Source: Adineta vaga
Lineage: Eukaryota > Animalia > Rotifera
Length of the DNA stretch: 64,000 bases
NCBI GenBank assembly: GCA_021613535.1
Contig: CP075494.1
Coordinates: 1,054,001 to 1,118,000 of the forward strand
Direction of reading: 5' to 3'
Of the stretch, positions 3,386 through 58,094 are shown in pieces. A program made the position numbers and the translations under genes. How positions within the stretch are numbered: position 1 is the stretch's first letter; the number at the start of each line of letters is the position of its first letter. The notes under the pieces are model-generated. The model did no database searches, was not told the origin of the DNA, and saw nothing but the letters and a program-made list of their open reading frames with translations.

Positions 3386-6163
3386 ATGGATCAAATTCAC
3401 ATAAATCAATCAAAGATCAAACAAGTAACTACAATGAATTCATCGTCGCTTATGGAAGGAATACTACTAGTTTGGTTTTCTTCCGCTCATGAATTAACAA
3501 TGATACCAAAGGAGTTAAATAGTCAAACTATTTGTTACTTTAATGAACAAGAATGTATTGATTTCATTACTGCAAATGCCCAAGAAATTATCTTTTTAAT
3601 AACTTCTATTTCATTTGCCGATAGTATTTTGCATCGTATTCATGAATTAAGACAAGTGGATTCTGTTTTCTTATTTTCTAATCAATTGGAAACGATTCGA
3701 GACGATTTATTTGATCGATATTCAAAAATTATTGGAAATTTCTCTCAATCGGATTTATTATTTGAAAGTATCAAAGAAAATATCACATTGGCAAATAAAC
3801 AATCTGAAACATTTAAATTTTATGATCAAAATCAAAAATCTACACGAGATCTATCGAAAGAGTCGGCGACATTTCTTTGGCTAAAACTATTTCGTGATAT
3901 TTTTGTTCAACTTCCATTAGACAAACATGCTAAAACAGATATGATTTGTAGATTAAAAGAATATTATCATAATAATAACAAACAATTAAAATTAATTGAT
4001 GAATTTAGTCGTAATTATAAACCGGAAAATGCTCTTCAATGGTACACAGATCAACCATTTATCTATAAACAACTTAATAGAGCCTTAAGAACAGAAAATA
4101 TTGAGCAATTGCATGCATTTCGATTTTTTATCGCGGGTCTTTGTTTAAGCATTACTGAAGAACATCAATTTATAAAAGAATTTTTTGAAAATATAACAGT
4201 TTATCGTGGTTTAACAATGTCTCAAATTGAATTTGAAAAATTAAAAGATAATGTCGGTAAGCTTATTTCAATGAATGGATTTTTATCAACAAGTCGATCG
4301 AAAAACGTAGCCATGACATTTTCCGGTAGACCAACGGAAAATAAGCAAAGTGTTCTTTTTCAAATTGAATGCAATGTGGAAGTCTTACAGGATGCTGTCG
4401 TTTTCGCTGATATTGAACGATTTAGTAAATATCCAGAAGAAAAAGAAGTTTTATTTGATTTGGGAGCTACATTTGAAATCATAAGTATGAATAAAGATGA
4501 ATCGACACATTATTGGTTGGTACATTTAAAAGCTACAGATATTGGTGAAAAAATTTCACAAGAATATATTCAATCAAATAGAAGAGAAATGGTGGGAGAG
4601 AGTTCTGCAATTGCATTTCCAAGTTTACTTGCTGATATGGGCGAGCATACACAAGCATTAAAGTTTTACGAACAATTATTATTTAATGATAGTGGTGAAG
4701 ATCAAGCGAAGATTTTTCATGGTATTGGTTCTATTTATTCAGTTAAAAGACAGTTTGATAAAGCTATTGCTAATCTTTCACATGCTTATCAATTAATGAT
4801 TAATGCTGATCCACAACGTGTGGAAGAATCAACAATTGTCCTCAATAGTTTAGGAAATGTACATACATCAAAAGGTGAATATGACAAAGCGATTATACAT
4901 TTCTTAGAAGCTTTAATGAATAGACGACGACTATTTGGTGATGAACTATTTAACATAGATGCTGATATCATGTCTAATATTGGCAATGTTCATTTTTTAG
5001 AAGGGAAAGATTATGATCTCGCCTTAGAGTATTACTCAAAAGCTTTCGATATCCAAGAAACTTGTTATCCAACTAATCATGCTATAATAGCAAATGCTCT
5101 TCATAATATAGCTAATTGTTATGCAAGAAAAAAAAATTATCATCAGTCATTAAAATATTTTAATGAGAGTTTTACTATAAAAAAACAAATTCTTCCACCT
5201 GAACATGTGGATTTAGCTGCTACTCTAACAAGTATAGGTACTATCAACTATAAAATGGGCAAAATAGATGAATCGCTTAATCATTTTACAAAAGCTATGA
5301 AAATATATGAAACGGCTTTTCCAAATGGTCATCCGAATACTTCAATATGTTTAACTAGCATAGCTCATTTTTATTATTCGCAAGATAATTTGGATGAAGC
5401 ACTGAAATATTTCGAAAAAGCACTCGAAATGAATGAATTATTTCTACCAATCATTAATAGTGATATAGCAGGTAATCTAATTAACATTGCTAATGTTTTA
5501 GCTGATCAAAACAAACAAGAAGATGCTATAGCTTATCGACTACTATCCCTTGCAATAGAAGAAAAATTATATCCAAACGGAAGTATTACAATGATGAATA
5601 ATTTGATTAAAATAGCAGAAATGTACTTTGAAAGAGGTGATTATCCTCGCACCATAGCATTTAGTTTGAAAACATTAATTGTTATAAGATGTTTGCGTAA
5701 TGATCAAGTTCATCTAGTTACCATAGCAAATATCCTATGCAATATTGGAATGGCTTTCATGTTGAAAGGTCAGATGGATTTGTCATTAGCTTATCATATT
5801 CGAGCTCTTCACCGACGATATCAAATGTATCCCGATGGACATAATAGTCTTTGTATGAGTCTCACTCATACAGCGACTCTTTATCATTTGAAAGAACAAC
5901 ATACACGTGCACTAAAATACTATGAAGAAGCTTTAATTATGTATCTAAAGCTTTTCCCTGATACATATCAAGTTAATTATCAAGTTGGCGAAATTTTCTT
6001 CAATATTAGTAACATTTATTCAATTAAAGATAATTTACATCTTTCTCTACAATATGCTGAAAAAGCATTGGATGTATTTCGTAGTACGACTGTTCGAGAA
6101 AATCGTAGTCGAAAAGCAGCTGAAGAAATTATTGCTCAAATAAAACAACGAATGCAATCTTAA
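3386..6163 (+). CDS. ADP-ribosyltransferase (R-S-E type) + TPR-repeat protein
   Basis: YRG, GFLSTS and PEEKEVLF (ExE) motifs, then about 11-12 divergent 42-aa TPRs (HP..A..L.NIG..Y...G.Y..AL); single 925-aa ORF. Confidence 0.9.
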   Translation: MDQIHINQSKIKQVTTMNSSSLMEGILLVWFSSAHELTMIPKELNSQTICYFNEQECIDFITANAQEIIFLITSISFADSILHRIHELRQVDSVFLFSNQLETIRDDLFDRYSKIIGNFSQSDLLFESIKENITLANKQSETFKFYDQNQKSTRDLSKESATFLWLKLFRDIFVQLPLDKHAKTDMICRLKEYYHNNNKQLKLIDEFSRNYKPENALQWYTDQPFIYKQLNRALRTENIEQLHAFRFFIAGLCLSITEEHQFIKEFFENITVYRGLTMSQIEFEKLKDNVGKLISMNGFLSTSRSKNVAMTFSGRPTENKQSVLFQIECNVEVLQDAVVFADIERFSKYPEEKEVLFDLGATFEIISMNKDESTHYWLVHLKATDIGEKISQEYIQSNRREMVGESSAIAFPSLLADMGEHTQALKFYEQLLFNDSGEDQAKIFHGIGSIYSVKRQFDKAIANLSHAYQLMINADPQRVEESTIVLNSLGNVHTSKGEYDKAIIHFLEALMNRRRLFGDELFNIDADIMSNIGNVHFLEGKDYDLALEYYSKAFDIQETCYPTNHAIIANALHNIANCYARKKNYHQSLKYFNESFTIKKQILPPEHVDLAATLTSIGTINYKMGKIDESLNHFTKAMKIYETAFPNGHPNTSICLTSIAHFYYSQDNLDEALKYFEKALEMNELFLPIINSDIAGNLINIANVLADQNKQEDAIAYRLLSLAIEEKLYPNGSITMMNNLIKIAEMYFERGDYPRTIAFSLKTLIVIRCLRNDQVHLVTIANILCNIGMAFMLKGQMDLSLAYHIRALHRRYQMYPDGHNSLCMSLTHTATLYHLKEQHTRALKYYEEALIMYLKLFPDTYQVNYQVGEIFFNISNIYSIKDNLHLSLQYAEKALDVFRSTTVRENRSRKAAEEIIAQIKQRMQS

Positions 6164-11335: not shown

Positions 11336-11971
11336 TTCTTACGTATTACATCGGAATGTACTTTGACATTTTCTTTTCATTTCTTCTCTTTGATGAAAGT
11401 GTATATCCGTATATGTTCTATCAGAACAATACGATTCATGATAGGAAGAAATAAACATAGGTGTAGGTTCCATCAACGTATATAATTTTCCCAGCAGACA
11501 TCTTCACACTAAAAATTTCCGGTGTTCATCGTTCCAATTGCTTCCAGATTGTATTACAAGGAAAATTTCAAGAACATTCTTCTCTCTTTATCATAAATAC
11601 ACAGATTACAGAAACTTTCGATTATATTATCGATAAAGAAGTTAACAAGACATGAAACTATTAGATATGAATGAGATACGAAGATATAGAATTAACTATA
11701 TTCATATCATATTGAGATTCAATAAATACATTTATATTATTCATACAATAAGTACAAAACTCTCTCACATGCATCTCTATATTCTTATATCAAAAATTGA
11801 TTTCCGTTATTTCATATAATTGGAATCAATTAAAGAGAAAAAACATTTGACAGAAAAATTTTCCTTGAAAGCACTATATGTGATTACTTTTTGCTCGGTG
11901 ATTTTCGAGTACAACATACAGTCGATTGTTATATTTATTTTTCAAACAGAAAGCCAAGAAATATCATTGAA

Positions 11972-13474
11972 ATGTTCATCGTTATTCTCATCTTGTTCAG
12001 TTCATCTTGCATAAGTTATACGTATCAAGATGTATCAATCGTTCGTTTAACTGACTTTGGTTATGTATTTGCGCCATTGAACGATTCCATGGGTCCTTTT
12101 CTTACTCTCACTGAAAAAACTGTTCTTCTGTGTCATTTGCAATGCAATCAAAGAATTGCTTGTCGAGTATTTGATTTTGATCAAGATACGAGTGAATGTC
12201 GATTATGGTCTGATGATTTAACAACTGGTATGCTGTCTCTCGTTCTACCATCAAAACCTCGATCAACAGTTGGCGCTATTCAAGTAACATCAAATACATA
12301 TGCTTCTATTCATAATCAACCATGTAATAAATGTGTTAACAGTCGTTATGAAATATGCGATCCAATTTCATTGACTTGTAAATGTCCGTCGATGACATTT
12401 TGGAATGGAAATTTATGTGTACCTCAACGATACTCATATCAATCATGTTCAACAATAGATAGTTGTCGACCAGATCTTCAATTCGAATGCAAAGATACTG
12501 GATGTAATTCTATTTATCAATGTTTAAATCAGACAAGTAAGAATTCTATTGAATAATACGTATAATTTTTCTAATCCTTTATTTATTGCTTAGATGTTGG
12601 TATAACTGTTGCTGGCTTTTGTAATGCGACCGCTGGTGGTGGAGTTCAAGGTTTGTCAGGTCCATGGGGTGTTTATGTTACATCGGATAATACACTCTAT
12701 GTAACTGATTATGATACTGGTCGAGTACAAGCTTATCCATCGTTGTCTCGTTCAGGAATAACGATAATGACGATCAGTGGAATTGTTGAAGATGTTTTTG
12801 TCGATACGATTGGATATGCTTACATGACTGCTTACACTCTCGGTAGTGTATTTGTTTCACCAACAAACACTACTCTTCCTATTTCTAAGACGTATTTATG
12901 TACTTCATCTTCAATAGCTTTACCTTATGGAATAGCTGTCGATCGTTATGGAAATATTTATATATCTGATTACTATTGTCATGTAGTCATGAAATGGACA
13001 CCAAATGCAACTACAGGTATTGTCGTAGCTGGACAACTCGGTATAGCAGGTATTAGCAATAATTTTCTTAGTGGTCCTAAGTTTATTTTTCTCGATGAAA
13101 TTAACTCAGCATTATATGTTACTGATTGTACTAACAATCGTATACAGAAATTTCTTTTGGGAGTGAGTACAACAGGTATTACAGTTGCTGGTATTAATGG
13201 ATATGGTTCAGGTCTAAGTCAATTGAAAATTCCAGCAGGAATTTGTGTATCACTCAAAGATCAATCGATCTATGTAGGTGATCAAGGTAATCATCGAGTG
13301 ATGAAATGGAAAGTGAATGCTACACAAGGTTCAATTATTGCTGGAAGTACAGGTGTAACAGGTAGTACATCTCTACTTCTTGATACACCAGGTGATGTTG
13401 CTCTTGATCCTACAGAAACATTTCTTTATGTGGCTGATTATGGTAACCATAGAGTTCAACGTTTCCGTCTATAA
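11972..13474 (+). CDS. Secreted PAN/Apple + Cys-rich (EB/EGF-like) + NHL-repeat protein; 2 exons
   Basis: Signal peptide MFIVILILFSSSC; PAN-like C..QC....C..FDF....CRL; intron 12537-12593 joins in frame (T-N-VGITVAG) to NHL repeats. Confidence 0.85.
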
Positions 13475-26530: not shown

Positions 26531-27259
26531 CCCAAATATAATAAAAAAACAAACGCGTATATCATAAGCGAATGTGAAGAAAAGTGACGGTTTGCTTGAT
26601 AATGTAGGAAATTGTAGAAATATAGTTATTAATGTGAGCTTGAGTAAAAGATACTTGCCCCACCCTCCAAACAACCTGTTTTTAGCGTAACTCGATCATA
26701 ATGAAAGTTTCCAATTGTTATCTATTCAAAATTCTTGTAACGATAGATTATATGTAAAATTTCTTTAGATAAATTAATAATTTTAAACCGATTTAACGTA
26801 TGAGTCAGCGGTCTTAATGAAAGTTTGTTAAAAAAATAATCATCTGTCCTTGTATTTTATAGAAAGCAAGGAGAAAATAATTTCTTTTACTGACATAATG
26901 TTCGCCTTCTTTTTTTTTCTTTCTACAAAAGTACATTAAACATTGTGTTCTCTTTTACTTTCAATGGTTAGTATTATTTGTCGTCGAGTTATTTTGGCAA
27001 TTTTTTTCTTTTTCATTCTGCTTTTCATGACGTTCTATTGGGTCTTTGATGTTAAAAAAGAGTTGTTATATATTTTTAATTATTTGTTTTTGCATGACTA
27101 TACATTGAAGAACAAGAAAGGAAGAAAGAAAAAAAAACGATAACTATGTAAAATAATCGTCATATTTTTTTTTATAAAATTCATCGTTGGGCTTTGACAA
27201 TTTTCGGAATAATAAAAAACGATTGATTTTACTTATTTTTAGATAATAATAAGAAAAAA

Positions 27260-28827
27260 ATGAGTATTGAATCATCTGTTGAGGATTTTGATGAAATCTT
27301 AGTGGATGAATTCATTGATCTTGATGATTTATTTTCTTTACCATTTGATTTCATATCGAATGATGATGAGACAATTATAGAAGACAATCAAACAATATTA
27401 TCTATACCCATGGTAATACTTTTTTTTTCTATAAAAAACTAAGAATAAAATGAAAATCTTTATCAATATGAATGAATTTGTATTTAGATCAATGAAACAT
27501 TATCTCCACCAAGTTCATCTGATGTTGATTATTTATCTAATCTTATTTGTCGTGTTTGTGGTGCTCAAGCATATGGTCATAATTTCGATCAAATCACTTG
27601 TGAATCATGTAAAGCATTTTTTCGTCGAAATGCATTGAAAAATTTGGTAAATATATTTTTCTTGAATGCTATTCGTTAGGCAGGGGGAGAGAGGTGATTC
27701 GTAAGAAGTTCTAATTTTGATAGTAAAAGATTTTCTATTTCCACTCATGCGTTACATTGCTCCAGGTTTATTTCATTTGTTAGTCTGATTTAAAATGTCG
27801 TTATTCTGGTTCATGTATTATAATTGAACGAACACGACGTCGATGTACATATTGTCGATTAAAGAAATGTTTTGATATTCAAATGCGTAAAGATTGGATT
27901 CGAACAAAAGAAGAACAACAATTAAGACAAATGATACAATTAGAAAAAGAACAAAGAAAATCAACAAACGGAAAACAAATATTACAAACATTACCAATTG
28001 TTGTTCGAAAGAAAAGACGTTTAACAACTCTAATGAAAACCCTTCCATCTTTACAAGTAAATAATTATTGATTTCTCAATTCTTTTATTTTTTTATCTTC
28101 TAATTTTAAGATAAATTCATTTCATTCCAAACATTTCTTATCAAATGATGATGGAATATTATTAAATAATATAACAAATGCTTATCAAAATGGAATAAGT
28201 GAAACTGATGGTTTTAGAATTTATAAATGCTTATCATCATCTTTAGTTGAATATATGAATGATGAAAGTAAAGTACATGAATCATTAATTCATTTTTTTA
28301 AATCTATTCCACAATTTAAACAAATTAATTCATCCGATCAAATTTTATTGATTAAATTTAATCAAATGGATCTTATTCATTTACATTATATCTTAATACG
28401 AAATTTTCGTGAAAATCTTCTTGTTGGACAAGTTATGTCCAAATGGATTAGTACAGATTTTCATGAACAAATGTCGAAAACACGTCATTATTTCGATATT
28501 TTTATTGAATATCCACTTGTTTTAAAATTAACACTTATCGTTCTTCTATTTTCAACAAGTTTATCAATACCAAAACAAAATGATCAATTTATTTATTTTA
28601 AAAATCGAAAACAAATTTACGAATATCAAAATTATTATATTTCATTATTATGGCGTTATTTAAATCATTTATTTGAAGGAAAACAAGCGATTCGATCATT
28701 ACAAATAATTATTACACAAATGTTACGTTTTCAAACATTAATGAATTATTTTGAACAATTTGTACAACAAGATAAACATCGTCATTCATTTAATCAGTTG
28801 ATGAAATCGCTTATTCAATTTGAATAA
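27260..28827 (+). CDS. Nuclear hormone receptor, NR1J (HR96/DAF-12/NHR-8)-like; 4 exons
   Basis: Zinc fingers CRVCG...GHNFDQITCESCKAFFRR (P-box ESCKA) and C....C......RRRCTYCRLKKC; LBD signature FFKSIPQF.....DQILLIK. Confidence 0.9.
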
Positions 28828-29022: not shown

Positions 29023-32000
29023 CTAACAGACATTCAAGAAAACAGACAAATCACCAGAATCTTTGTCCGTTACTAATAAATCCAGTTTGTTATCAAAGTT
29101 GAAGTCACCATATATTATACAGTACGGGGCAGTTCCAGTGATATACTTATTTTGAGGCTGAAAGATTCCATTACCATTGCCAAGCAATACGCTAATGGTA
29201 CTGTCACCTTGATTGGCTACTGCCAGATCGAGTTTGTTGTCATTATTAAAATCAGATGATATCACAAACCGTGGAGCGTCACCAACAATATAGTTTATTG
29301 CAGTCAGAAAAATTCCATTGCCATTGTTCAACAAAATACTAACAGTGTTATCCTTGAGGTTAGTCACTGCCAGATCTGATTTACTATCATTGTTAAAATC
29401 CGCTGATATCGCGGATATTGGTTTATTACCAACTGTATAATTCATTGGAGTCTGAAAGCTTCCGTCTCCCTTACCAAAAAAGACACTAATATTGTCGTCA
29501 TTATAGCTAACTACTGCCAGATCTACTTTATCGTCGTTATTGTAATCAGCTGATGTTACAAAGTATGGAATGCGAATACCTGTAAGGTTTCCTATAGTCT
29601 GAAAGATCCCATTTCCAATGTTAAGCAGAATGCTGACAGAATTGTCGTTCAAATTTACCACTGCGAGATCGGATCGACGATCATTGTTAAAATCAGCTGA
29701 TATCACACAGATAGGATATCCACCAACAGTATAATTCATAGGAATCTGAAAGCTTCCATTTCCATAGCCTAATAAAACGGTGACTGTATTACCATCTAAA
29801 TTAGTCACTGCGAGATCGAGTTTGTTATCATTATTGAAATCAGCAGATGTTGCAGAGAATGGCTTCTTATCAACTGTATAGTTCATTGGATTTCGAAAGA
29901 TTCCATTTTCATTGTTAAGTAGTATCTTGACAGTATTGCCACTGGCGTCGATCGCTGCTAGATCCAGTTTATTATCATTGTCGAAGTCAGTTGATATTAT
30001 AGAACTCACTAGTCCAAGAAGTTTATAGCGTCTTGAAATCAGAAAGGTTCCATTGCCACTACCACTCAACACATAAATAGTACCACTTAAGTAATCTGCT
30101 ACGGCGAGATCGGGTTTATAATCGTTATTGAAATCAGCAGATATTAAACACGTAAGATCTGTACCAACTTTATAGTTTATTGAAGATTCGAACGAGCCAT
30201 TTCCGTTACCTAGCAATACAGTGAGAGTGTCATCCTTGAAGTTGATTAGTGCGAGATCAAATTTTTCATCATTATTGAAATCAGCAGATATTATAGAATC
30301 AGGATAATTTCCGACAGTAAGATTTATTAGAGTGGAGAAGACTCCATTTCCATCACCTAGCAACACACTGATGCTATTATTGAGTGAGTTGGCTATTGCC
30401 AGATCCAATTTATTGTCGTTATTAAAATCAGCTGACGTCAAAGATTTTGGATAATTACCAACGATATAATTTAATGGCGTTTTGAACGTGCCATCGCTAT
30501 TACCTAGCAACACAGTGAGAGTATTGTCCTGCAAGCTAGTCACCGCCAGATCGAATTTTTTATCGTTGTTAAAATCAGCGGATATTACAGAGATTGGAAA
30601 ATTTCCCACTGTATAATTTATTGGGCTCTGAAAGACTCCATCTCCATTACCCAGTAGTAGAGAGACGCTGTTATTGTATGAGATGGTTACTGCCAGATCC
30701 AATTTATTATCATTATTAAAATCAGCGCATATCACACAGGTTGGGTAATTTCCAACTGTGTACTCTGCTGGAGTTCGAAAGATGCCATTACCATTGCCAA
30801 ACAGCACGCTAATGGTGTTGTCACCTTGATTGGCAACTGCCATATCCTGATTTCCGTCTTGATTAAAATCACCTGTTGCGATTGAGTTTGGATTTCGCCC
30901 AACTGCATAAATCCATGGAGTCAGAAAAGATCCATCCATCTTGCCAAGAATCAGAAAAATGGCGTTGTTTTCGCTATCGACTATTGCCACATCTTGAATT
31001 GTGTCGTTGGTAAAGTGACCCATTCTTGCAGAAACTGGACTGCCCGAAGTCCGATAAGATTTTGCGACTTTAAAAGGGTTTAGACATATAGGTGCTAAAA
31101 TAAAATTATTTTGACTAATGCTTTAACAAGCTTGTATTGATGAATATTTTTTTAGAACATTGGTGGTAAAAAGATCTGACAAAACATGAATGATAATGAA
31201 AACAATCTTGAAAATCATACCTGCTGAACTAACATGCGATCTTGTTCCCAAAACAGAACCAACAATAATTGCTCCAATGAGTAGAATAATCAATAAACTA
31301 AGAGGAATAATGAATCTCTTCTTATGAAACCAACGACGTCTTGTAAATATAATGAATAATCTCATCGCAATCTAGTTCGAAAGAAATGAAATAGAACTTA
31401 CTCGTTTTCGGGATAAATACGTGCACCTAAATGTCAATATAATATAGTAATCGAATATCAAATGATTAAAAAATATTTAAAATACCTTCAAACGGTGGTT
31501 CTAATAACACTTGATCTGGTATGATTTGTTTCAAATGAATGATATGAAGATCAGGCGCTGGACTAAGTTGTGACTGAACTATCATATGAGTACCACATAA
31601 AAGTAAAATTTCATCTTCAGTAACAAAATGTGAATGGTTACGTATTGTTCGACCATTAATAGCTTCTACAGAGAATAATGTTCGATTGCCACTATGGCCC
31701 AAATACATATCATTTTCAAGTACAGTTAATGAACTTGTACATGATGAAAAGGCCCACCACGTCACTGCTCTACCGACCGGAAATTCTGCACTTAAATTTT
31801 TCGTTACTCCACGCCACACAGTTAATTGTGGAACGCATGGCAATTTGACCAAAGCAGTTATAAATAATTTTAAATATTTATAAAAGAGTCGTATAATCTC
31901 AGAATCACCGTTTTTCAGAGCATGATTGAGCACCGAATAAAGACTTTGATGCGGTGTGTTCCATTCAATTGTGTAGAGGCGAATTGCAGCGCTTTCATCA

Positions 32001-32485
32001 ATCGTGAGACCGTCAGATGGTTGTTCTGGAGTTTCATTGAACGCCATTTGAATATAGAATGACAAATCATGGAGGATGTTTGTCAGCGGAGCGCATGCTT
32101 TGTAAAGTGGCAACAAAGGCTCATGAGCATATCCCACCAGAGGATTAAGATTGGTTCTAATATTACCAATGTTTTTTGTGGTTATCACAGATGAGTTTTC
32201 AGCGACGACTTCTATTAATCGAGGATTTCTTATCGTAAAGTCTTGCATTTGTACTGTTTCTTGTCTTGAATTCATTGTATAATCTATGTGTGATGAATCG
32301 CTTTTAAATTCTATATTTTTATTCATAATATATCGTCGTAAATCTGTCTCACCATCAGGAAGCATGATTGCTGTTAGATCAGTCTGTACATAGGCATCTT
32401 TGCCCATTATTTTTCGTTGATTATTCGATTCTTCATTATTGTTTGTACTTTCTGTTAATTCAATCTCGATAAGATTGTTTCTCAT
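29023..32485 (-). CDS. Type II membrane protein: N-terminal ADP-ribosyltransferase, TM helix, 14 FG-GAP/VCBS repeats (1071 aa, 4 exons)
   Basis: Exons 32485-31486, 31426-31402, 31339-31221 and 31094-29023 splice at GT-AG into one 3216-nt frame; ART motifs VWRGV, AFSSCT, TEDEILL; TM FIIPLSLLIILLIGAIIVGSVLG; 14 D(F/Y)N.D..LDLAV-type repeats. Confidence 0.88.
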
Positions 32486-32882
32486 TGTCCACCTTGCCGT
32501 AATTTATGAATGTAAATGCCAAAAACGAGATATCAAGGTCTTTCGTGCTTTCAAGTCTTTAATGAATTCTATAATGTTCTCCTATTGCTTCTTTTACGTT
32601 TCTTAATACGAAAATAAACAGAACTAGTATACACGTAATTATCTTTAAATGATGTTTAAAAAAAACGATAGATGTATAAGTAAATCAGTAAACGTACTAG
32701 ATTTAAGTGCAAATAAAACCAAAAATAAACTGAATAAAATGCGAAGGCGACTTGTTTTTATCTTTCTTGTATTATGGGATCATTGAAGCGTAGATTACTT
32801 TCATTTACCTTCACAAAATGTTAACCTCATACAATTTACAAATAGAAAAGAAAAAAGATACATGACTCACCTCTCTTACATG

Positions 32883-32990
32883 TCCAACTGTATACTATCA
32901 TTTTTTATCTAAGGTTTTCAATGAAGATGATAAGAACGAAGGCAACGTAAGATAGTTCATTGGAAACTTGAATTCAAGTTTAACACTATA
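32883..32990 (+). repeat. Dispersed repeat, copy of 60052-60187
   Basis: Shared cgaaggcaacgta..atagttcatt.gaaacttg...ttcaagtttaacacta. Confidence 0.75.
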
Positions 32991-33244
32991 CTACTCATCA
33001 AATATAAGAATTGAGAAATGACTCATTTACTGAAAAACATTGAATTTGTTTTTTGAAAATGACTGGGATTGTTTTTACAATGAAAATTTGTTTTTTTCTC
33101 TCTATGGGAATTCGAATTCAACAATGCATGATTTTCACACAGTCTAAACAAACTCCGCCATGAAGAGTAAAATCAATCTTCTTATAAATGCTTGCCAATT
33201 TTCTTTTTGTATTTAAAAAAAAAAACAAATTTCTTTTATTCAAC

Positions 33245-36142
33245 ATGGATGAAAATCTTTCCAAACGATCACATCAAGCTATTCGTTATCAAAATGAAAC
33301 CATTAAAATTGAAATAATTAATCATCATGGTATCGAATGTATATTTTTCGATGATATACGTCAATGTTATCCTAAAGTAACATGTTTATATATTGATGAT
33401 AAACAACAAAGCTTTCTTCGTGATGAAAATGGTCATCGTCTGGAACCATTATGTATTAAAGCTTGTCCTGATGAAACTATGGTTGCTTTTGAATCAAAAG
33501 ATATGAATTCAATAAACAATGAGACATTTAATAAAAATATTCAAGAAATACAAAAAAGTCTTGTACTTTTGAATAATGAAATACAAGAAAAATTTAAACA
33601 AACAATGACATTAACATACGAACTTCATGAATATACAACACCTCATTATTTCTATATTTCACAAGTACAAAATGATAATCAAAGTTTACGACAAAAATTT
33701 GTCAGCAGTGTACTTCATCGTGAATATAAATTATATTTCTTATGTGATTGTTCTGATGATCCATTACAACGACATATTGCTCCACATGATGGTTATATTA
33801 TTAAAGAACCAACAAAATTTATAACTGAATATGGTGCTAATATACGTACAACATTAAATATTATAAGAACTGCACTTCCTATTGTCGGTCGTATTGTAGA
33901 TTCACAAATCGATGATGTACCAGCATTAATTTCCGACGTTACTAATTCATTAAGTTTCTATACTTGGATAAATACAATCGATTTACTTGAACATACATTA
34001 GACGAAGTAGAAAAAACATCATTGACGACAAACACATCAAATGAAGCGAAAATAATGACACAACATCGACATATGTCATTACATGGTGCTTCATTAAGAG
34101 AATTAATCAATTATTTAGAAGGAGTTGATAATAAAAATAGTCTCGGAAATTTATATCGAAAAATTACTGATGATGGTCATGTTCGATGGGTATGTCTTGA
34201 ACATTATGATATTGATTATCATAATCAAAGAATATTTCAATATATTCAACAAATAGAAAATTTAGGAGGAAAATATAATAAAGAAACAAAAGAAGTTGTT
34301 ATAACAAGTATTAAACAAGTGCCTATAGAGATTCCAAAATTAAATTATTTATTAAAAAATGGTTTAAAAATAACAAAACTTATTATGAATGAATGTTGTT
34401 TAAAAGAAACAGATTTAAATCTTTTATTTGATATTTCTATAAATTCATTTTCAATTAATTTAACTTTTTCGGATGTAAAAATTTTCAATCGATTTCCCGG
34501 AACAAATTATATTTGTAAATCAATATCAATTTTTATTAAAGAAGATTTCATTGAATTTTATTTACCAAATCGATATACAAATGGAGATATAAAACTAATT
34601 ATTCAATTTTTATTACAAAATAAAAGTCGACGAATAATTAACATTTCTGGTATTTATCAATCTATTGATTATGAAAATAATTTTTGTTCAGAAATAAAAA
34701 ATGAATCGAAAATTTTAATAATTAATCATTTAAATAATATTGAAATATTAAATCAATTATTATCTTCAACAATTTCATTTACTCATCTTAAATTAAATTA
34801 TTGTTATGGTTCATCGACGAGTTTTTTAAATCTTTGTGATTTATTAGGAAAACATTTAACACTTAATGAACTTGATTTAATTAATTCAACTAGTTTTGAT
34901 GATGAAACACTTCTTATTCCATTATTAAAATCATTAAAAAATAATATTTCATTAAAAATAATAAATCTTAATATTTCAAATTTACATTTAACAGAACAAG
35001 ATCAAAAAGAAGCTTATCTAATTAAATTACTCAACAGTAAAACATTTATTTCTCATTTATATTTATTAAATTCAAATATAACATTAGATTTTGTCAAAGC
35101 AATTATTGATAATTTAAATAAAACAGATACATTAAAATATCTTCAATTATATAATTGTACAATAAATGATGAACATTTATTAAAACTTGTAGAACTTTTT
35201 TCGACAAACAATTTTCATTTTATTAAATCAGATGAACAATATTTTAATGTTATATCAAATCAAATAACAGAATTAATCAATAAAGGTAGGATATTTTAGA
35301 ACAAAAGTAACATTCATCGTTTCCACTCACTTGACCCTCGACTGTCGAAAACAGAAAATTATTTTCTCTTCTCAATGTTCAGGGAGTAGATGTTCCGGTA
35401 CTTTTCGATGAGATTCAATTGTAAATACACCACCCACATCCTTCATAAGACCCTCCCTACAGTCAAGGTAATTATCTTTTGATTTTATTTAGAATATGAT
35501 CAAGACAACAATTTAGAAATTAAAGATTATCTCATTAATGATCATTTAGATTTAAGTGATAAACAATTATTTGATAAAGATATGATTATTTTATATAATA
35601 ATAAAGATATTATTAAACGATGTAAACAAATTTCATTAAATAATAATCAAATAACATCAGTTGGAATTCTTATTTTAACGGATTTATTATTTAATAATAT
35701 TAATTTAGAAAAATTAAATTTTAATTCAAATAATTTATGTGATGGTGGTCTTTATTTATTAATGAAAATATTAATGATGAATAAGAATAATTTTCAACAA
35801 ATTTATCTTAAATCCAATGAAATTACTGATGAAGGTATTAATTATTTAATTCAAATATTAAAAAGTAATAAAAATTTAACACATTTGGATTTATCAGATA
35901 ATTATATTACTGATAATGGACTAAGAAAATTAATTCAAATAATCAATGATGAAAAAATTCATCTAAAATACTTTTTATTAGATGAAAATAAAGAAATAAC
36001 TGATTCAAGTATTTCTTTATTAATTTCAATGATTAAAAATAATAAATCAATAGAAAATCTCTCATTAATTAATTGTAATATTAATGAAAGAAGTAAAAAT
36101 AAACTTAGAGAAAATAACAATAGAAAAAATATTTATTTTTAA
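33245..36142 (+). CDS. RNI-like LRR protein with N-terminal TYELHEY/LYFLC/HDGY/GHVRWVC region; 2 exons
   Basis: ORF 33188-35299 (ATG 33245) joined by intron 35286-35492 in frame to L..L.L..N.ITD.G repeats ending at 36142. Confidence 0.8.
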
Positions 36143-38732: not shown

Positions 38733-39849
38733 CCCTTTGAGGCCTGAATTATTTCTGCCGAATTGAAGTTTGATAAAACATACTATTAAGCATTTATATG
38801 ATATTACGACACCTCTGGTTAGGTTAAAATCAAACCATGTGTGATTATATGGTTACCTATTTATTCATTTCAATGCTGATACACATAGTTTTGATGATAC
38901 AAAGAAAAACAATTTTTCACACATAAACCAACACCGCAAAAAGTACATATCACATCCGTCCTTTTCTGTTTTTCTTTCGTACTACAATAAGCACATCTAC
39001 GACGAGTTGAAATAACTTCTGGCATATGAGCTAACAGCTGCGGTTTTTCAGAACTTTTTGTGTCATTTATGCTCTTTTCGATGCGCATCTTCTTCTGATT
39101 ACTCATTGCCAAAGGTCTTCCTGGTCTTTTTCTACTACAATAATTATCTATCAGTGCAGTACTAATAGACGATATATATTCTACTGTACTAATATCACTA
39201 TTAGAAAAATGTTTATAATAGATGAATGAGTTCACCAATGACATACCAAGGAAATGTAAAAATATTCTTATCCAGTTTCTCTTTAATTTTCGACCAGTTG
39301 TATAATACTTAATTTTTTGATCCGATAGATCCACTCCTCCCATGTACTTATTGTACTCAACAATTGCTAACGGACAAGAAATTTGCTTTCTATTTCCATC
39401 TTTATCTCGTCGACTAACTTCACCCTTAACTGCAGGATCAAAGTAGTTTGATGCAATAAGAACTTCTTTCTTGTCCATCCATTTTATTACGGAAACTCCA
39501 TTAGATGTTAGATATCGATAATCGCCTCTCTCAAGTTTTTCTTTTTTCTTCAATTCAGTTGGAAAATATTTTCTATCTGAACGAATTGTACCAGTAGCTG
39601 AAATTTTATTTCTCCTAAGCTTGTGAAGTAATCGTAACGAAGTAAAATAATTATCAAAAAACAATTGACTATTTTTCATGCTTATTCCATTTACTAATGA
39701 CATAACCACATGCTCCCCTAATGACAAATATCGTTCTGTATTTTTTCCTGTATAAATTTCACCACGACACAAAAAATCAAAACACGAATTTTTCAAAATT
39801 AGAAGTTTTCGCTAGGTGGTACATATATGTACCACTGGGACTCAAATGG
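38733..39849 (-). mobile_element. piggyBac element, internally deleted (1117 bp)
   Basis: TTAA at 38729-38732 and 39850-39853; imperfect TIRs CCCTTTGAGGCC / CCATTTGAGTCC; subterminal palindrome gtggtacatatatgtaccac. Confidence 0.92.
38870..39796 (-). CDS. piggyBac transposase, C-terminal half
   Basis: FFDNYFTS, GTIR, KWMD and YNKYMGGVDLSD motifs, Cys-rich tail RRRCAYC...C..C...LC..CF..YH; N-terminal half absent. Confidence 0.9.
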   Translation of the reverse strand: MKNSCFDFLCRGEIYTGKNTERYLSLGEHVVMSLVNGISMKNSQLFFDNYFTSLRLLHKLRRNKISATGTIRSDRKYFPTELKKKEKLERGDYRYLTSNGVSVIKWMDKKEVLIASNYFDPAVKGEVSRRDKDGNRKQISCPLAIVEYNKYMGGVDLSDQKIKYYTTGRKLKRNWIRIFLHFLGMSLVNSFIYYKHFSNSDISTVEYISSISTALIDNYCSRKRPGRPLAMSNQKKMRIEKSINDTKSSEKPQLLAHMPEVISTRRRCAYCSTKEKQKRTDVICTFCGVGLCVKNCFSLYHQNYVYQH

Positions 39850-40922
39850 TTAATTCTATTGTTATTTCACTTGGATCATAAGATATTCCAAGATCACCAT
39901 CTCGACATTCTTCAGACCAATTCTTTGGAATTGATTCAAAATATATATCACTGGGTTTTTCTTGAGAATAAATTGTATAATTTTCTATTCTTCGAATAGT
40001 TTGTGTATCATCATGAATAACTTCTAAATATCGAATAGGAATATTTGTATTTTTATGAAAATATATTTCTTGACATCGATAAATTTCACCAGTATCAATT
40101 TGACACGTTTCATTTGAATACCAATAATCTTCATTTTTCGATGAATTCATTGAATGAATCATTGGATAATTAAAATTTAAATAATTTTTAATTCGATATA
40201 AACTATCATTACCCCAATGGAATGGAAATAAACCAAATGAATTCGAACTATATTCCCAATATGTTAAATAAGAACAAAGATTATTTCTATTATTTTCATT
40301 TAAAATTAATTGAACATAATGTTTTGCTTGTGGTGAATCAGATTTTGCATATGGTATGTGTTGCATTACATAAGCAATATCAGTATCTTCATTACTTATA
40401 TTTAGTTTTAAATAAGCACGTTGATTTATTTCATCAATTGCAATTATTGTTTTATTATTATCAGGAGAGAAAATAACTTGTTCAGGAAAATAAGGTTGTG
40501 TTGATTGAACGAAATGTTGATGAAATATGAAAATGAATAAACATAAAAACAACAATTTCATCTTTTTATTATCAAAAATAATATTATTTCAACGCTAAAC
40601 TGATATATTTATACAAAAGAAAAGAAAGATTACTAATGTATATAGTTTTATCTTTTAACAACTCATGAAAACATGTTGATATCATTCTTACGTGAGGTTT
40701 CATTTCGTAAATATAGGATATATTTTTATCAATGAAAGTTTTTGTTATGAGAGCTTCTGCTAGAAAGTGAAATAAAACTATTTTAGTCTTTTCTGTCGAA
40801 ATTTGGCCTCTAGCACTCTTAAGAACAATCGAGAATCCTGATAAGTAAGTTACGTAAAGCCGTGAACAGGTGATTCTGATATAAAGAGAACAAATAAATA
40901 ACTCAAATGAAGATCTTCAACT

Positions 40923-55198: not shown

Positions 55199-55697
55199 GT
55201 TGTATCATATGCTTAACGCTTTTGTTAGTCAAAATATTCAATTTTAAAAACTTCTTGTCTATTCACATCTTCCGGTTGAATCTGAAGAGAAATATTTGAT
55301 AGCTATTCTTATTCAGCCAATTCTTTCTGCATTTATCTAGGTGAGGATACATGTAAAGAAAAAATAGACTCTTACCTCAGTATAGACTCAACGAAAAAAA
55401 GAATCAGAAAAAACGATGCAGAATGAGATGTGTTGACACAACAGAAAAGAAAAACTTCATGATAAAAGCAAAGAACACACACACATGCGTGCAAATAAAG
55501 TATAATTTTTTGTTTAGTATTTTATATATTGTTGGAAACTTCCAAGTTAAATATTTGCAGTCATTTTTCTTTTCGGCTATGGCAACTTCACATGATACCA
55601 CATTGTCAGGCAATGATTTTCAAATCATATGACTTGATTATCTTATAGATGACATTGTAAATTCTACTTCACAAATAACAAATATTTCAAGTCAATA

Positions 55698-58094
55698 ATG
55701 GAACAGACAAATGTGATTTCGAAACAAGTGAATGAATATAATAATGTCGACATTGAACAAATACAAGATATTCTTATTGTTTGGTTGGACAGCTCCATTC
55801 ACAGCAATAATCCAGACTGTCAAAATACAATTACACAACTTCAACAAGTTGTTACCAATGTTCATACATTTACTGATAATGATCAATGCATCGAATTCAT
55901 TCTCAATACCATCGATAAAAAAGTATGTATGATTATTTCAGGATCAATTGGACAAGATATTGTGCCGTGCATACATGATATCTCACAAATTGATTCTATC
56001 TTCATCTTTTGTAACAATAAAAATCAGCATGAACAATGGGTAAAACCATGGTTCAAAGTAAAAGGTGTTTCTATAGACATCACAAATATCTGTCAACAAT
56101 TACAACAAATAACTCGTCAGTACGAACAAAATACTATGCCAATGAGCTTTGTAGCATCTCGAAAACGATTGGATCAATTAGAACCATCATTTATGTACAC
56201 ACAAATCATCAAAGAAATACTATTAACCATCACATTCGAAGATAAACACATCAAAGAATTTATCGATTATTATTGTGATGCATATGTTGACAATGAAATC
56301 GATCGAAAGAAAGTTAAGCAACTGGAACATGGATATCATCAGAAAACACCCGTTTGGTGGTATACAACAGAGAGATTTTTGTATGGAATGTTGAATCGTG
56401 CTTTACGAGAGATGAACGGTGAAGTGATCACATTAATGGGTTTCTTTATCAGTGATCTTCATCAACATATTGAAGAATTACACAAAAAACAACTTCGAAA
56501 GATCTCTACTACTAAAATCCTTACAGTTTATCGTGGCCAAGGTATGACAAAGAGAGATTTCGATGATATGGTACAATCGAAAGGTGGACTAATATCATTC
56601 CTTAATTTCTTATCAACAAGCAATGATCGCAAAGTCGCCTTGTCTTATGCCGAAAGTAATAGTGAGAAATCTGGCCTCATAGGCATTCTATTCGTAATGA
56701 AAATCGATCCTGTTCAATCGACAACACCATATGCCTCAGTTGGAGATATCAGTAACTTTATAGAAGAAGATGAAACTCTCTTTTCGATGCACACTGTTTT
56801 TCGCATAGATGATATCATTGCAATGAATGGCAATGAGCGACTGTATGAGGTGAAGTTATCACTGACTAGTGATAATGATCCAGAATTAAGTGTGCTTACT
56901 AAGCGAATTCGAGAGGAGAGTTTCCCACACGCTGAAGGATGGCAAAGAATGAGTTTAGTGTTAAATAATATAGGACAATCTAACGTTGCTGAGCGAATAT
57001 GTAAAGTTTTACATGCTCAGGCAATTAATGAGAGCAACAATCCAGATATTTATAATCAATTTGGTTCAATAAAATATCAGCGAGGACAATACGGCGAGGC
57101 CATAAAACGTTATGAGCAAGCTCTCAAAATTCTACAACAATCACTTCCTTCTAATCATCCAAATGTGGCTTCATCTTATGGCAACATCGGTAATGTGTAT
57201 TCCAACATGGGTGATTATTCAAAAGCACTTGTGTCATATGAACAATGCCTCAAAATTCAACTACAATCACTTCCTTCTAATCATCCAAATGTGGCTTCAT
57301 CCTACAACAACATCGGTGCAGTGTATTATAAGATAAGTGATTATCCCAAAGCACTTGCATCATACGAACAAGCCCTCAAAATTCAACAACAATCACTTCC
57401 ATCCAACCACCCTGATATGGCTTCATCCTACAACAACATCGGTGCAGTGTATTCCAACATGGGTGATTATTCAAAAGCACTTGTGTTATATGAACAAGCT
57501 CTCAAAATTCGACAAGAATCACTGCCGTCTAATCATCCAAATGTGGCTTCATCCTACAACAACATCGGTAATGTGTATTCTGACATGGGTGATTACTCTA
57601 AAGCACTTGTGTCATATGAACAAGCTCTCAAAATTCGACAACAATCGCTTCCTTCTAATCATCCAGATGTGGCTTCATCTTATGGCAACATCGGTAATGT
57701 GTATTCCAAGATGGGTGATTATTCAAAAGCACTTGTGTCATATGAACAATGCCTCAAAATTCAACTACAATCACTTCCTTCTAATCATCCAAATGTGGCT
57801 TCATCCTACAACAACATCGGTGCAGTGTATTCCAACATGGGTGATTATTCAAAAGCACTTGCGTCATATGAACAAGCTCTCAAAATTCGACAACAATCAC
57901 TTCCTTCTAATCATCCAGATGTGGCTTCATCCTACAACAACATCGGTGATGTGTATTCCAACATGGGTGACTATTTAAATGCTTGTTCATTTTTCGAATA
58001 TGCTCTCCAAATTGGACAACAAGTACTACCATCGAGCCATCCTCATCTGCGCCTCTTTAAAACAAATTATGAAAATGCGAGAAAGAAATTGTAA
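55698..58094 (+). CDS. ADP-ribosyltransferase (R-S-E type) + TPR-repeat protein
   Basis: YRGQ, NFLSTS and EEDETLF (ExE) motifs followed by a TPR array; 798-aa single ORF. Confidence 0.92.
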   Translation: MEQTNVISKQVNEYNNVDIEQIQDILIVWLDSSIHSNNPDCQNTITQLQQVVTNVHTFTDNDQCIEFILNTIDKKVCMIISGSIGQDIVPCIHDISQIDSIFIFCNNKNQHEQWVKPWFKVKGVSIDITNICQQLQQITRQYEQNTMPMSFVASRKRLDQLEPSFMYTQIIKEILLTITFEDKHIKEFIDYYCDAYVDNEIDRKKVKQLEHGYHQKTPVWWYTTERFLYGMLNRALREMNGEVITLMGFFISDLHQHIEELHKKQLRKISTTKILTVYRGQGMTKRDFDDMVQSKGGLISFLNFLSTSNDRKVALSYAESNSEKSGLIGILFVMKIDPVQSTTPYASVGDISNFIEEDETLFSMHTVFRIDDIIAMNGNERLYEVKLSLTSDNDPELSVLTKRIREESFPHAEGWQRMSLVLNNIGQSNVAERICKVLHAQAINESNNPDIYNQFGSIKYQRGQYGEAIKRYEQALKILQQSLPSNHPNVASSYGNIGNVYSNMGDYSKALVSYEQCLKIQLQSLPSNHPNVASSYNNIGAVYYKISDYPKALASYEQALKIQQQSLPSNHPDMASSYNNIGAVYSNMGDYSKALVLYEQALKIRQESLPSNHPNVASSYNNIGNVYSDMGDYSKALVSYEQALKIRQQSLPSNHPDVASSYGNIGNVYSKMGDYSKALVSYEQCLKIQLQSLPSNHPNVASSYNNIGAVYSNMGDYSKALASYEQALKIRQQSLPSNHPDVASSYNNIGDVYSNMGDYLNACSFFEYALQIGQQVLPSSHPHLRLFKTNYENARKKL
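57111..57992 (+). repeat. Seven near-identical 126-nt tandem repeats encoding 42-aa TPRs
   Basis: Unit YEQ.LKI.Q.SLPSNHP.VASSY.NIG.VY..MGDYSKAL.S repeated 7 times with near-identical DNA. Confidence 0.95.

Follow-up and report, generated by a model that had tools for sequence, protein, structure and literature searches.

A candidate enzyme-linked receptor with an ADP-ribosyltransferase domain and a double propeller ectodomain from Adineta vaga, a bdelloid rotifer

To our knowledge, the output of a single-pass receptor is a kinase, a phosphatase, a cyclase or a TIR domain, and we know the animal ARTC class of ADP-ribosyltransferases (ARTs) as ecto-enzymes. The gene described here lies on the minus strand of Adineta vaga contig CP075494.1 (assembly GCA_021613535.1), at 29023..32485 of a stretch of 64,000 nt (contig positions 1,054,001 to 1,118,000, hereafter the window, from whose first letter positions are counted). 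It is predicted to encode an ART and two seven-bladed beta-propellers on either side of one transmembrane helix. A single helix between a binding-type module and a catalytic domain is the layout of an enzyme-linked receptor, and we favor, at a probability of roughly 0.55, the reading that this protein is such a receptor and that its output is ADP-ribosylation.

Receptor kinases, plant lectin receptor-like kinases and Toll-like receptors with TIR domains are built in a similar way, with one helix, a variable recognition module and a conserved cytosolic catalytic or signalling domain; they too form large families with module exchange and decayed copies. Most of these are type I proteins with a signal peptide, whereas the rotifer family appears to be type II and would have an ART as its output. 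PARP16 (ARTD15) belongs to the diphtheria-toxin-like PARP clade and has a short luminal tail only. In the portions of the literature that were available, it is described as a membrane-anchored mono-ART, as the A. vaga protein would be, and more precisely as a tail-anchored protein of the endoplasmic reticulum (ER) that relays ER stress and modifies PERK and IRE1a. It differs in being a single gene without exchangeable ectodomains, and its type requires an H-Y-x triad, whereas the A. vaga protein has R-S-E and about 700 amino acids (aa) after the helix.

Vertebrate ARTC enzymes (ART1, ART2.2, ART5) either carry a signal peptide and a glycosylphosphatidylinositol (GPI) anchor or are secreted. 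Unlike these, the A. vaga protein has no signal peptide, an internal helix, a 689-aa ectodomain and an ART that is predicted to be cytosolic. It shares with them Pfam family PF01129 and the R-S-ExE set of residues, typical of arginine modifiers according to passages of PMC8120803. ART-lectin toxins of the Pierisin/MTX type also begin, according to the same passages, with an R-S-E ART that is followed by repeated binding modules. They are soluble, with ricin-B domains on the ART side and proteolytic release, whereas a helix separates the two parts of the rotifer protein; Pierisin has QxE and modifies DNA, whereas the rotifer ART has ExE.

Gene structure and the ART domain

Three long minus-strand frames (32503-31466, 31371-31123 and 31122-29023) follow one another in this AT-rich window, which has a GC content of about 0.3 and short introns. 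The initial annotation, made from the letters alone, had joined them through a 25-nt microexon into one 1071-aa frame, and the arithmetic agrees: four exons add up to 3216 nt, equal to 1071 codons plus a stop codon, with no internal stops. The introns of 59, 62 and 126 nt are all GT..AG and AT-rich, and an in-frame stop lies six codons upstream of the ATG. The counts in the following list come from 65 related metagenome loci (62 reaching the end of the ART, 57 with at least 300 nt downstream) and from an alignment of 296 ART domains, each matched over more than 170 residues.

31486..32485, minus strand: exon 1, 1000 nt, with the ATG, a variable N-terminus of ~110 aa without signal peptide, then the R-S-E ART (residues ~113-333)
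31811..31813, minus strand: R225 of the R-S-E triad (VWRG); R in 288/296 aligned domains
31742..31744, minus strand: S248 of the STS-like motif (S-C-T); S in 293/296
31610..31633, minus strand: ARTT loop SHFVTEDE with E290-x-E292; E290 in 283/296, E292 in 295/296
31427..31485, minus strand: intron 1, 59 nt, phase 1; missing in L019, L021, L033, L034 and L054, where the microexon sequence directly follows the ART
31402..31426, minus strand: microexon, 25 nt, seven whole codons (ARIYPEN); motif [GD]A.[LIVF][YF]P in 41/62 loci and in gene models
31340..31401, minus strand: intron 2, 62 nt; L017, L030, L035 and L037 have the microexon joined in frame to the helix
31221..31339, minus strand: exon 3, 119 nt, encoding the basic residues RRWFHKKR and the one predicted transmembrane helix, GxxxG at its end
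31095..31220, minus strand: intron 3, 126 nt, phase 1, a putative exchange point of outer modules in the family; the first post-helix donor is phase 1 in 21/26 distinct loci (3 none, 2 other)
29023..31094, minus strand: exon 4, 2072 nt, with 14 FG-GAP/VCBS repeats of 49 aa, predicted to form a double 7-bladed beta-propeller with DxNxD loops, then the stop codon
31084..31086, minus strand: C385, ahead of repeat 1 and predicted to form a disulfide with C1071, judged by co-occurrence in relatives and by repeat register
29026..29028, minus strand: C1071, the last residue, in the same repeat register as C385
L019:4857-9998: a relative whose ART, helix and 28 repeats, enough for four propellers, are in open frame, as also in L021; it is well suited as a construct-free family reference

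The four-exon model is accepted because relatives lack intron 1 or intron 2, and because in L019 and L021 one open frame of 1714 codons runs through the ART, the helix and all 28 repeats. Gene models of relatives read LEPPF-E-GA.LYPK..R.WY.KKR-helix, which is the frame restored by the microexon, and read-through proteins from metagenomes place intron 1 at the same position. The 120 listed short relatives of the ART mostly end in intron 1 read-through and are excluded from the count of stand-alone ARTs. A W[YF]-basic-helix arrangement lies at most 600 nt from the ART in 39/57 loci (26/35 after near-copies are collapsed), compared with 31/290 random windows scored by a looser rule. That the locus is one intact gene, by predicted splicing, is well supported by these comparisons.

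RNA did not settle the model. Contigs from runs presumed to be RNA cover exons 1 and 4 with few differences; 31059-31439 and the stretch 32512-33153 are uncovered, and these gaps were given no weight. Six listed contigs (three studies, mostly paralogs) and one near-identical contig lose their match at the first donor (31483-31484 in the six), which is a weak hint only. A second joint, from 30875 to 31484, has just 26 letters on one side and was left uncounted. One paralog contig (3/4 runs presumed RNA, one study) joins the end of the ART to an FG-GAP repeat across a gap of 408 letters, its short side being 36 letters long; by arithmetic, the distance from the ART end to the second repeat is 399 in the spliced A. 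vaga gene, and the contig fits a spliced paralog that is three codons longer. The initial annotation had looked to RNA for the three junctions; all of them are backed by relatives.

Some of the data favor a different product. None of the three introns is bridged by a contig presumed to be RNA. Exons 2 and 3 together measure 144 nt, so that skipping both would preserve the frame and yield a form without helix, and 3/9 ART-FG-GAP gene models have no helix. Among the metagenome loci, L015, L020 and L036 have lost the helix exon and carry no outer module, and in L038 and L063 the helix is partly deleted. With the helix-less gene models P0005, P0008, P0030, P0031, P0034 and P0041, these points would fit a main product that is a soluble cytosolic ART-propeller protein, similar to the ART-LRR and ART-TPR relatives, or else separate or decayed genes. 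We consider this very improbable in view of the conservation of the helix exon near the ART, the single frames of L019 and L021, and a pair of terminal cysteines in the propellers (see below). The five truncated loci are consistent with birth-and-death turnover.

Exon 1 matches Pfam ART (PF01129) with E 4.7e-7 and 29.8 bits, above the cut-off of 22.3. The intact motifs reported in the initial annotation are present in R-S-E order (VWRG at residue 223, FSSCT at 246, TEDE at 289), and R225, S248, E290 and E292 are all four intact in 280/296 aligned domains. SHFVTEDE fits the pattern X-X-aromatic-X-X-E/Q-X-E, with the aromatic residue at position 3, and ExE is common among arginine-modifying ARTs (both from passages of PMC8120803). 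Judging by these motifs, the ART is likely to be enzymatically active, with arginine as its putative acceptor. The R-S-E fold is assigned to a toxin-type clade in the available parts of PMC3482391, and the recruitment of toxin ARTs by eukaryotes in general is described there and in PMC3417536.

ART clusters of the ESM Atlas (score 0.98) are nearly all eukaryotic and, where the source is known, mostly from Rotifera; the family comprises 3126 representatives at E <=0.001. The only ART reached by a profile search of solved structures was the toxin Vis (4xzj), with a weak E of 0.017, and a single-sequence search of PDB with the A. vaga ART gave no match. The ART profile (A2) included LRR columns, so that most of its PDB matches were LRR proteins, and these were ignored. 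AACRNL (PMC12957317) was set aside as an H-Y-Y ART and hence of a different family.

Membrane topology and the ectodomain

The protein has one hydrophobic segment, at residues 348-378 (Kyte-Doolittle peak 2.95), right after RRWFHKKR (residue 343). No N-terminal hydrophobic segment or signal peptide was found in its first 45 aa (hydropathy maximum 0.29), nor was one present in a set of 30 family proteins. There is no C-terminal GPI signal: the only hydrophobic segment is internal, and the chain ends in a repeat. Lysine and arginine (K/R) are richer before the helix than after it in 27 of the 30 family proteins (mean 5.5 vs 2.6), a bias that we read by the positive-inside rule. Both terminal cysteines, C385 and C1071, are found in 9/17 ART-linked propellers and in 5/115 other proteins, and the N-terminal cysteine is present in all 9 ART-linked propellers that have the C-terminal one. 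A disulfide between them would close the propellers, and would thus place these in an oxidising compartment.

Because the signal peptide is missing, the K/R bias points the same way and the cysteines are paired, we suggest that the ART faces inward, and the protein is likely a type II signal anchor with a cytosolic ART and propellers outside. The hydropathy scan confirms what the initial annotation had said of the absent signal peptide and of RRWFHKKR before a single helix; its type II topology is supported indirectly, by the same three lines of evidence. In the opposite orientation, the ART would be extracellular or luminal and the propellers would be cytosolic scaffolds. This would agree with the vertebrate PF01129 members, which are ecto-enzymes, and with glycosylation sequons, which show no clear enrichment in the repeats (14 in 697 aa vs 4 in 350), a comparison that is uninformative in an Asn-rich protein. 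Such an orientation is scarcely credible for a protein without signal peptide in which a folded 340-aa domain precedes the helix, in a family with K/R bias on the ART side in 27/30 proteins and in which the paired cysteines and modules of secreted type (LCCL, PAN, LamG) lie beyond the helix.

Exon 4 matches Pfam FG-GAP_3 with E 6.7e-93. It holds exactly 14 repeats, as annotated, with a spacing of exactly 49 aa and a DxNxD calcium-type motif in 14/14 (repeat 1 has H for D). The ectodomain was modelled from a 36-sequence alignment that drew on 35 of 120 listed relatives; a single-sequence fold, with a predicted local distance difference test (pLDDT) score of 32, was set aside. The model has pLDDT 93.6, a predicted template modelling score (pTM) of 0.77 and 14 four-stranded blades. 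It aligns to seven-bladed chains over ~320 residues, in ranges near 8-350, 352-689 and 5-689, the last of which we read as an N-terminal strand that may complete the second propeller. Both the model and the fold matches bear out the two seven-bladed propellers of the initial annotation. A unit of seven repeats is indicated because the counts are 28, 14 (six open reading frames (ORFs), two near-identical) and 7 among 8 repeat-bearing ORFs out of 12 scanned, and because 5/9 gene models have 7 (the others 5, 8, 8 and 9). No tandem duplication of a seven-repeat unit was seen, the lag-7 identity of 0.47 being like that at other lags.

The top fold match of the ectodomain is an integrin (Z 35.3, root-mean-square deviation (rmsd) 2.5 A over 322 residues, 12% identity). 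Unlike the integrin alpha propeller, the rotifer repeats are shorter and regular, form two predicted propellers and have no known beta-chain partner. By sequence, they are of the 49-aa bacterial VCBS/FG-GAP_3 type and not integrin-type; the earlier FG-GAP label holds in the former sense only. Foldseek with the ectodomain model returned only DDB1-like multi-propellers, with rmsd about 16. Among the 120 best-listed relatives of the repeats, 5 are named rotifer proteins and the remainder are bacterial or unnamed (metagenomic), which suggests a bacterial ancestry.

The best sequence matches among solved structures are a 'secreted esterase' pair, 9oee and 8w20 (E 2e-19 and 2e-27 between them). The latter is a Streptomyces umbrella toxin particle, and its UmbA propellers are described as lectins in the parts of PMC11062931 and PMC13274773 that were available. 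These propellers, among the best sequence matches, have conserved Ca-type loops with variable pockets, as here, and umbrella toxins also resemble the rotifer family in having diversified, exchangeable lectin modules that include 7-bladed propellers and laminin_G_3 (PMC13274773, in part). They differ in being particles that bacteria secrete and that carry a toxin into other cells, and UmbA4 has 6 blades. That the rotifer repeats bind sugar is a lead only. Integrins and other generic 7-bladed propellers tie in Z score, so that the fold identifies no lectin, and the top-face loops, though variable, are equally so in non-rotifer repeats and thus show no special diversification; both points count against the receptor reading.

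The bdelloid family and activation by clustering

The A. vaga gene is not unique but is one of a large bdelloid ART-helix-ectodomain family. Named relatives come from bdelloid rotifers (Adineta, Rotaria, Didymodactylos), and many are already found in databases as 'NAD(P)(+)-arginine ADP-ribosyltransferase'. One helix follows the ART in 29/55 long relatives, and the modules after the helix are LamG, FG-GAP, peroxidase, PAN, LCCL, NHL or a cysteine-rich region. The phase-1 intron after the helix may offer a route for the exchange of these modules.

A quick tree of hand-picked ART domains (82, with three omitted for their shortness) places every one of the 35 helix-bearing rows in a single 46-row branch with SH-aLRT 99. 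A careful tree of 35 rows splits 25 helix-bearing from 10 cytosolic ARTs at 100/99, with a bootstrap that is not fully settled. Approximately unbiased (AU) tests, with clade labels from Pfam and picked after the quick tree was seen, reject monophyly of the LamG members (p 4.9e-5) and likewise of the FG-GAP members (p 4.2e-4). The trees thus reject one origin per module, and we suggest that outer modules were acquired more than once each on one ART-helix cassette; gene conversion among ART domains could also cause the pattern.

Outside this branch are helix-less fusions of the ART with RI-type LRRs, NHL, TPR, AIG1 and Roc GTPases, kinases, a MACPF toxin-like domain and an ADP-ribosylglycohydrolase (the survey included a scan of 80 proteins). 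In P0042 and P0047, ART and ADP-ribosylglycohydrolase, writer and eraser, are in one chain. P0007, P0018 and P0020 are ART-helix-heme peroxidase proteins (cytochrome c peroxidase-like) and could be peroxide sensors or bifunctional enzymes. P0051 and P0054 are kinase-TPR-ART fusions with PF22215 (which we take to be the MLKL N-terminal domain), P0372 joins the ART to a MACPF/stonustoxin-like domain, and P0023 has four LCCL domains after ART and helix. The Sphagnum-labelled matches P0055 and P0187 may stem from rotifer sequence within assemblies of moss.

GxxxG, a motif that serves helix pairing, stands at the end of the helix in 27/29 relatives as well as in the A. vaga gene, compared with 6.1 expected from shuffles, kin not being independent. 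When two copies of the ART were modelled together, the homodimer scored 0.32, against 0.02 for the best of 3 controls; contacts agreed to at least 92% and pLDDT was at least 86. In calibration, the pass mark was reached by 21/30 solved pairs and 0/23 single chains; in eukaryotes, it was reached by 17/29 pairs (animals 7/16), 0/30 single chains and 1/7 pairs without an older solved relative. These results, which are hints only, fit activation by clustering.

In the mechanism that we propose, the protein would be inserted as a single-pass type II signal anchor, with the ART toward the cytosol and the double propeller outward. A multivalent surface ligand, perhaps a microbial surface glycan or protein, would bind the propellers and cluster the receptors, which would pair through the GxxxG of the helix and the dimer face of the ART. 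Clustering would turn on the ADP-ribosylation of arginines inside the cell, with a role in innate defence and reversal by ADP-ribosylhydrolases.

The dimer score is just equal to the pass mark, and the prediction was run without an alignment and with NAD (nicotinamide adenine dinucleotide) included. The predicted interface (residues 251-274 and 304-317) is not specially conserved relative to the rest of the ART (0.85 vs 0.84 in close relatives, 0.51 vs 0.64 in distant ones). Peroxidases are the outer modules of 5/55 long relatives, and enzymes fit an anchor as well as a sensor. Together with the short-tailed members P0297, P0303 and P0304, which have the helix but little after it, these points suit a constitutive membrane-tethered ART, whose outer module would serve to place it (in adhesion, at the surface of gut or phagosome, in the extracellular matrix) or would do enzymatic work of its own, without gating. 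We regard such a tether as unlikely, although it deserves serious attention. Repeated swaps of binding modules, the conserved GxxxG and the dimer prediction fit ligand clustering better, and a cytosolic arginine-ART that lacks gating would presumably come at a cost.

The initial annotation had also allowed that the ART might signal or kill. A sensor-coupled switch for cell death or NAD drainage, in which the ART as suicide effector would modify an essential host protein or hydrolyse NAD, is suggested by the toxin-type R-S-E fold, the weak match to Vis, and relatives with MACPF-like, GTPase, LRR and kinase domains. We hold this to be decidedly unlikely: the ART-ADP-ribosylglycohydrolase proteins P0042 and P0047 point to reversible modification in the wider family, and copy numbers that run into the hundreds in a genome (431 in A. 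vaga) would suggest graded use. For the receptor itself, the analogy drawn in the initial annotation, that of an inside-facing ART in place of a receptor kinase, is partly supported: the family survey, GxxxG and the marginal dimer prediction speak for it.

Expression, neighboring genes and significance

The Gene Ontology (GO) class of arginine-ARTs comprises 431 genes in A. vaga and 366 in A. ricciae (Nowell 2024 supplement, PMC11258130). The search covered 12 of the 16 supplementary files, with files 9, 11, 13 and 16 and the largest expression table outside it; the file with the GO class is taken, judged by file order, as the set of horizontally acquired candidates. After fungal infection, the class is enriched among down-regulated genes (A. 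vaga 6/431 at T7 and 19/431 at T24; A. ricciae 8/366 at T24). This is a misfit with an induced antifungal defence, and so counts against the role proposed above to the extent that helix-bearing members are among these genes. In the parts of the paper that were available, its authors propose that antibacterial genes with constitutive expression might be lowered after fungal infection, which would fit the ART class; no ADP-ribosyl term occurs in those parts of its main text. In two other A. vaga transcriptome papers, in the portions available, ADP-ribosylation terms change with spaceflight and desiccation, and the family is unnamed.

Expansions of FG-GAP, NHL, TPR and LRR genes in A. vaga were described by Arkhipova et al. 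in 2013, who, in the available parts, suggested defence or signalling and did not include ARTs. No description of an ART-helix-ectodomain receptor was found in the literature searched, most subscription papers being outside its reach. The parts of the protein are known, and the receptor layout appears to be undescribed.

Two further ART genes with TPR arrays lie in the window at 3386-6163 and 55653-58094 (both plus strand). Their ARTs are distant from that of 29023..32485 (27% and 32% over short stretches); the former has an ExE-type motif, and a pattern search found none in the latter. A nuclear-receptor-like gene with a zf-C4 match (27250-28827, plus strand) lies tail-to-tail with the receptor candidate, ~200 nt from its stop codon. 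Upstream of the candidate, and on the opposite strand, two long ORFs at 33188-36142 (plus strand) encode 703 aa without Pfam match followed by 219 aa of RI-type LRRs, and might together make up a single LRR gene that belongs to an expanded family. NHL-repeat genes are found at 1123-2055 and 11834-13474 (plus strand), one of them after a weak PAN match; these module types also serve as ectodomains in the ART family. A DDE_Tnp_1_7 transposase, presumably piggyBac-like, is present in at least two ORF pieces at 38870-40588 (minus strand).

More tentatively than for the single protein, we propose that the family is a new class of bdelloid receptors, in which a toxin-derived arginine ART inside the cell is combined, on a cassette with a phase-1 intron, with interchangeable lectin-like and other ectodomains. 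With its soluble ART-LRR, ART-NHL, ART-TPR, ART-GTPase and ART-hydrolase relatives, it might form a network of innate recognition in which ADP-ribosylation has the place that TIR domains or kinases take in other animals. If this is true, a further output would be added to those of receptors, and an animal would have a natural intracellular writer of arginine ADP-ribosylation. It would also provide a function for one of the largest unexplained expansions in bdelloids, the 431 A. vaga genes of the GO class.

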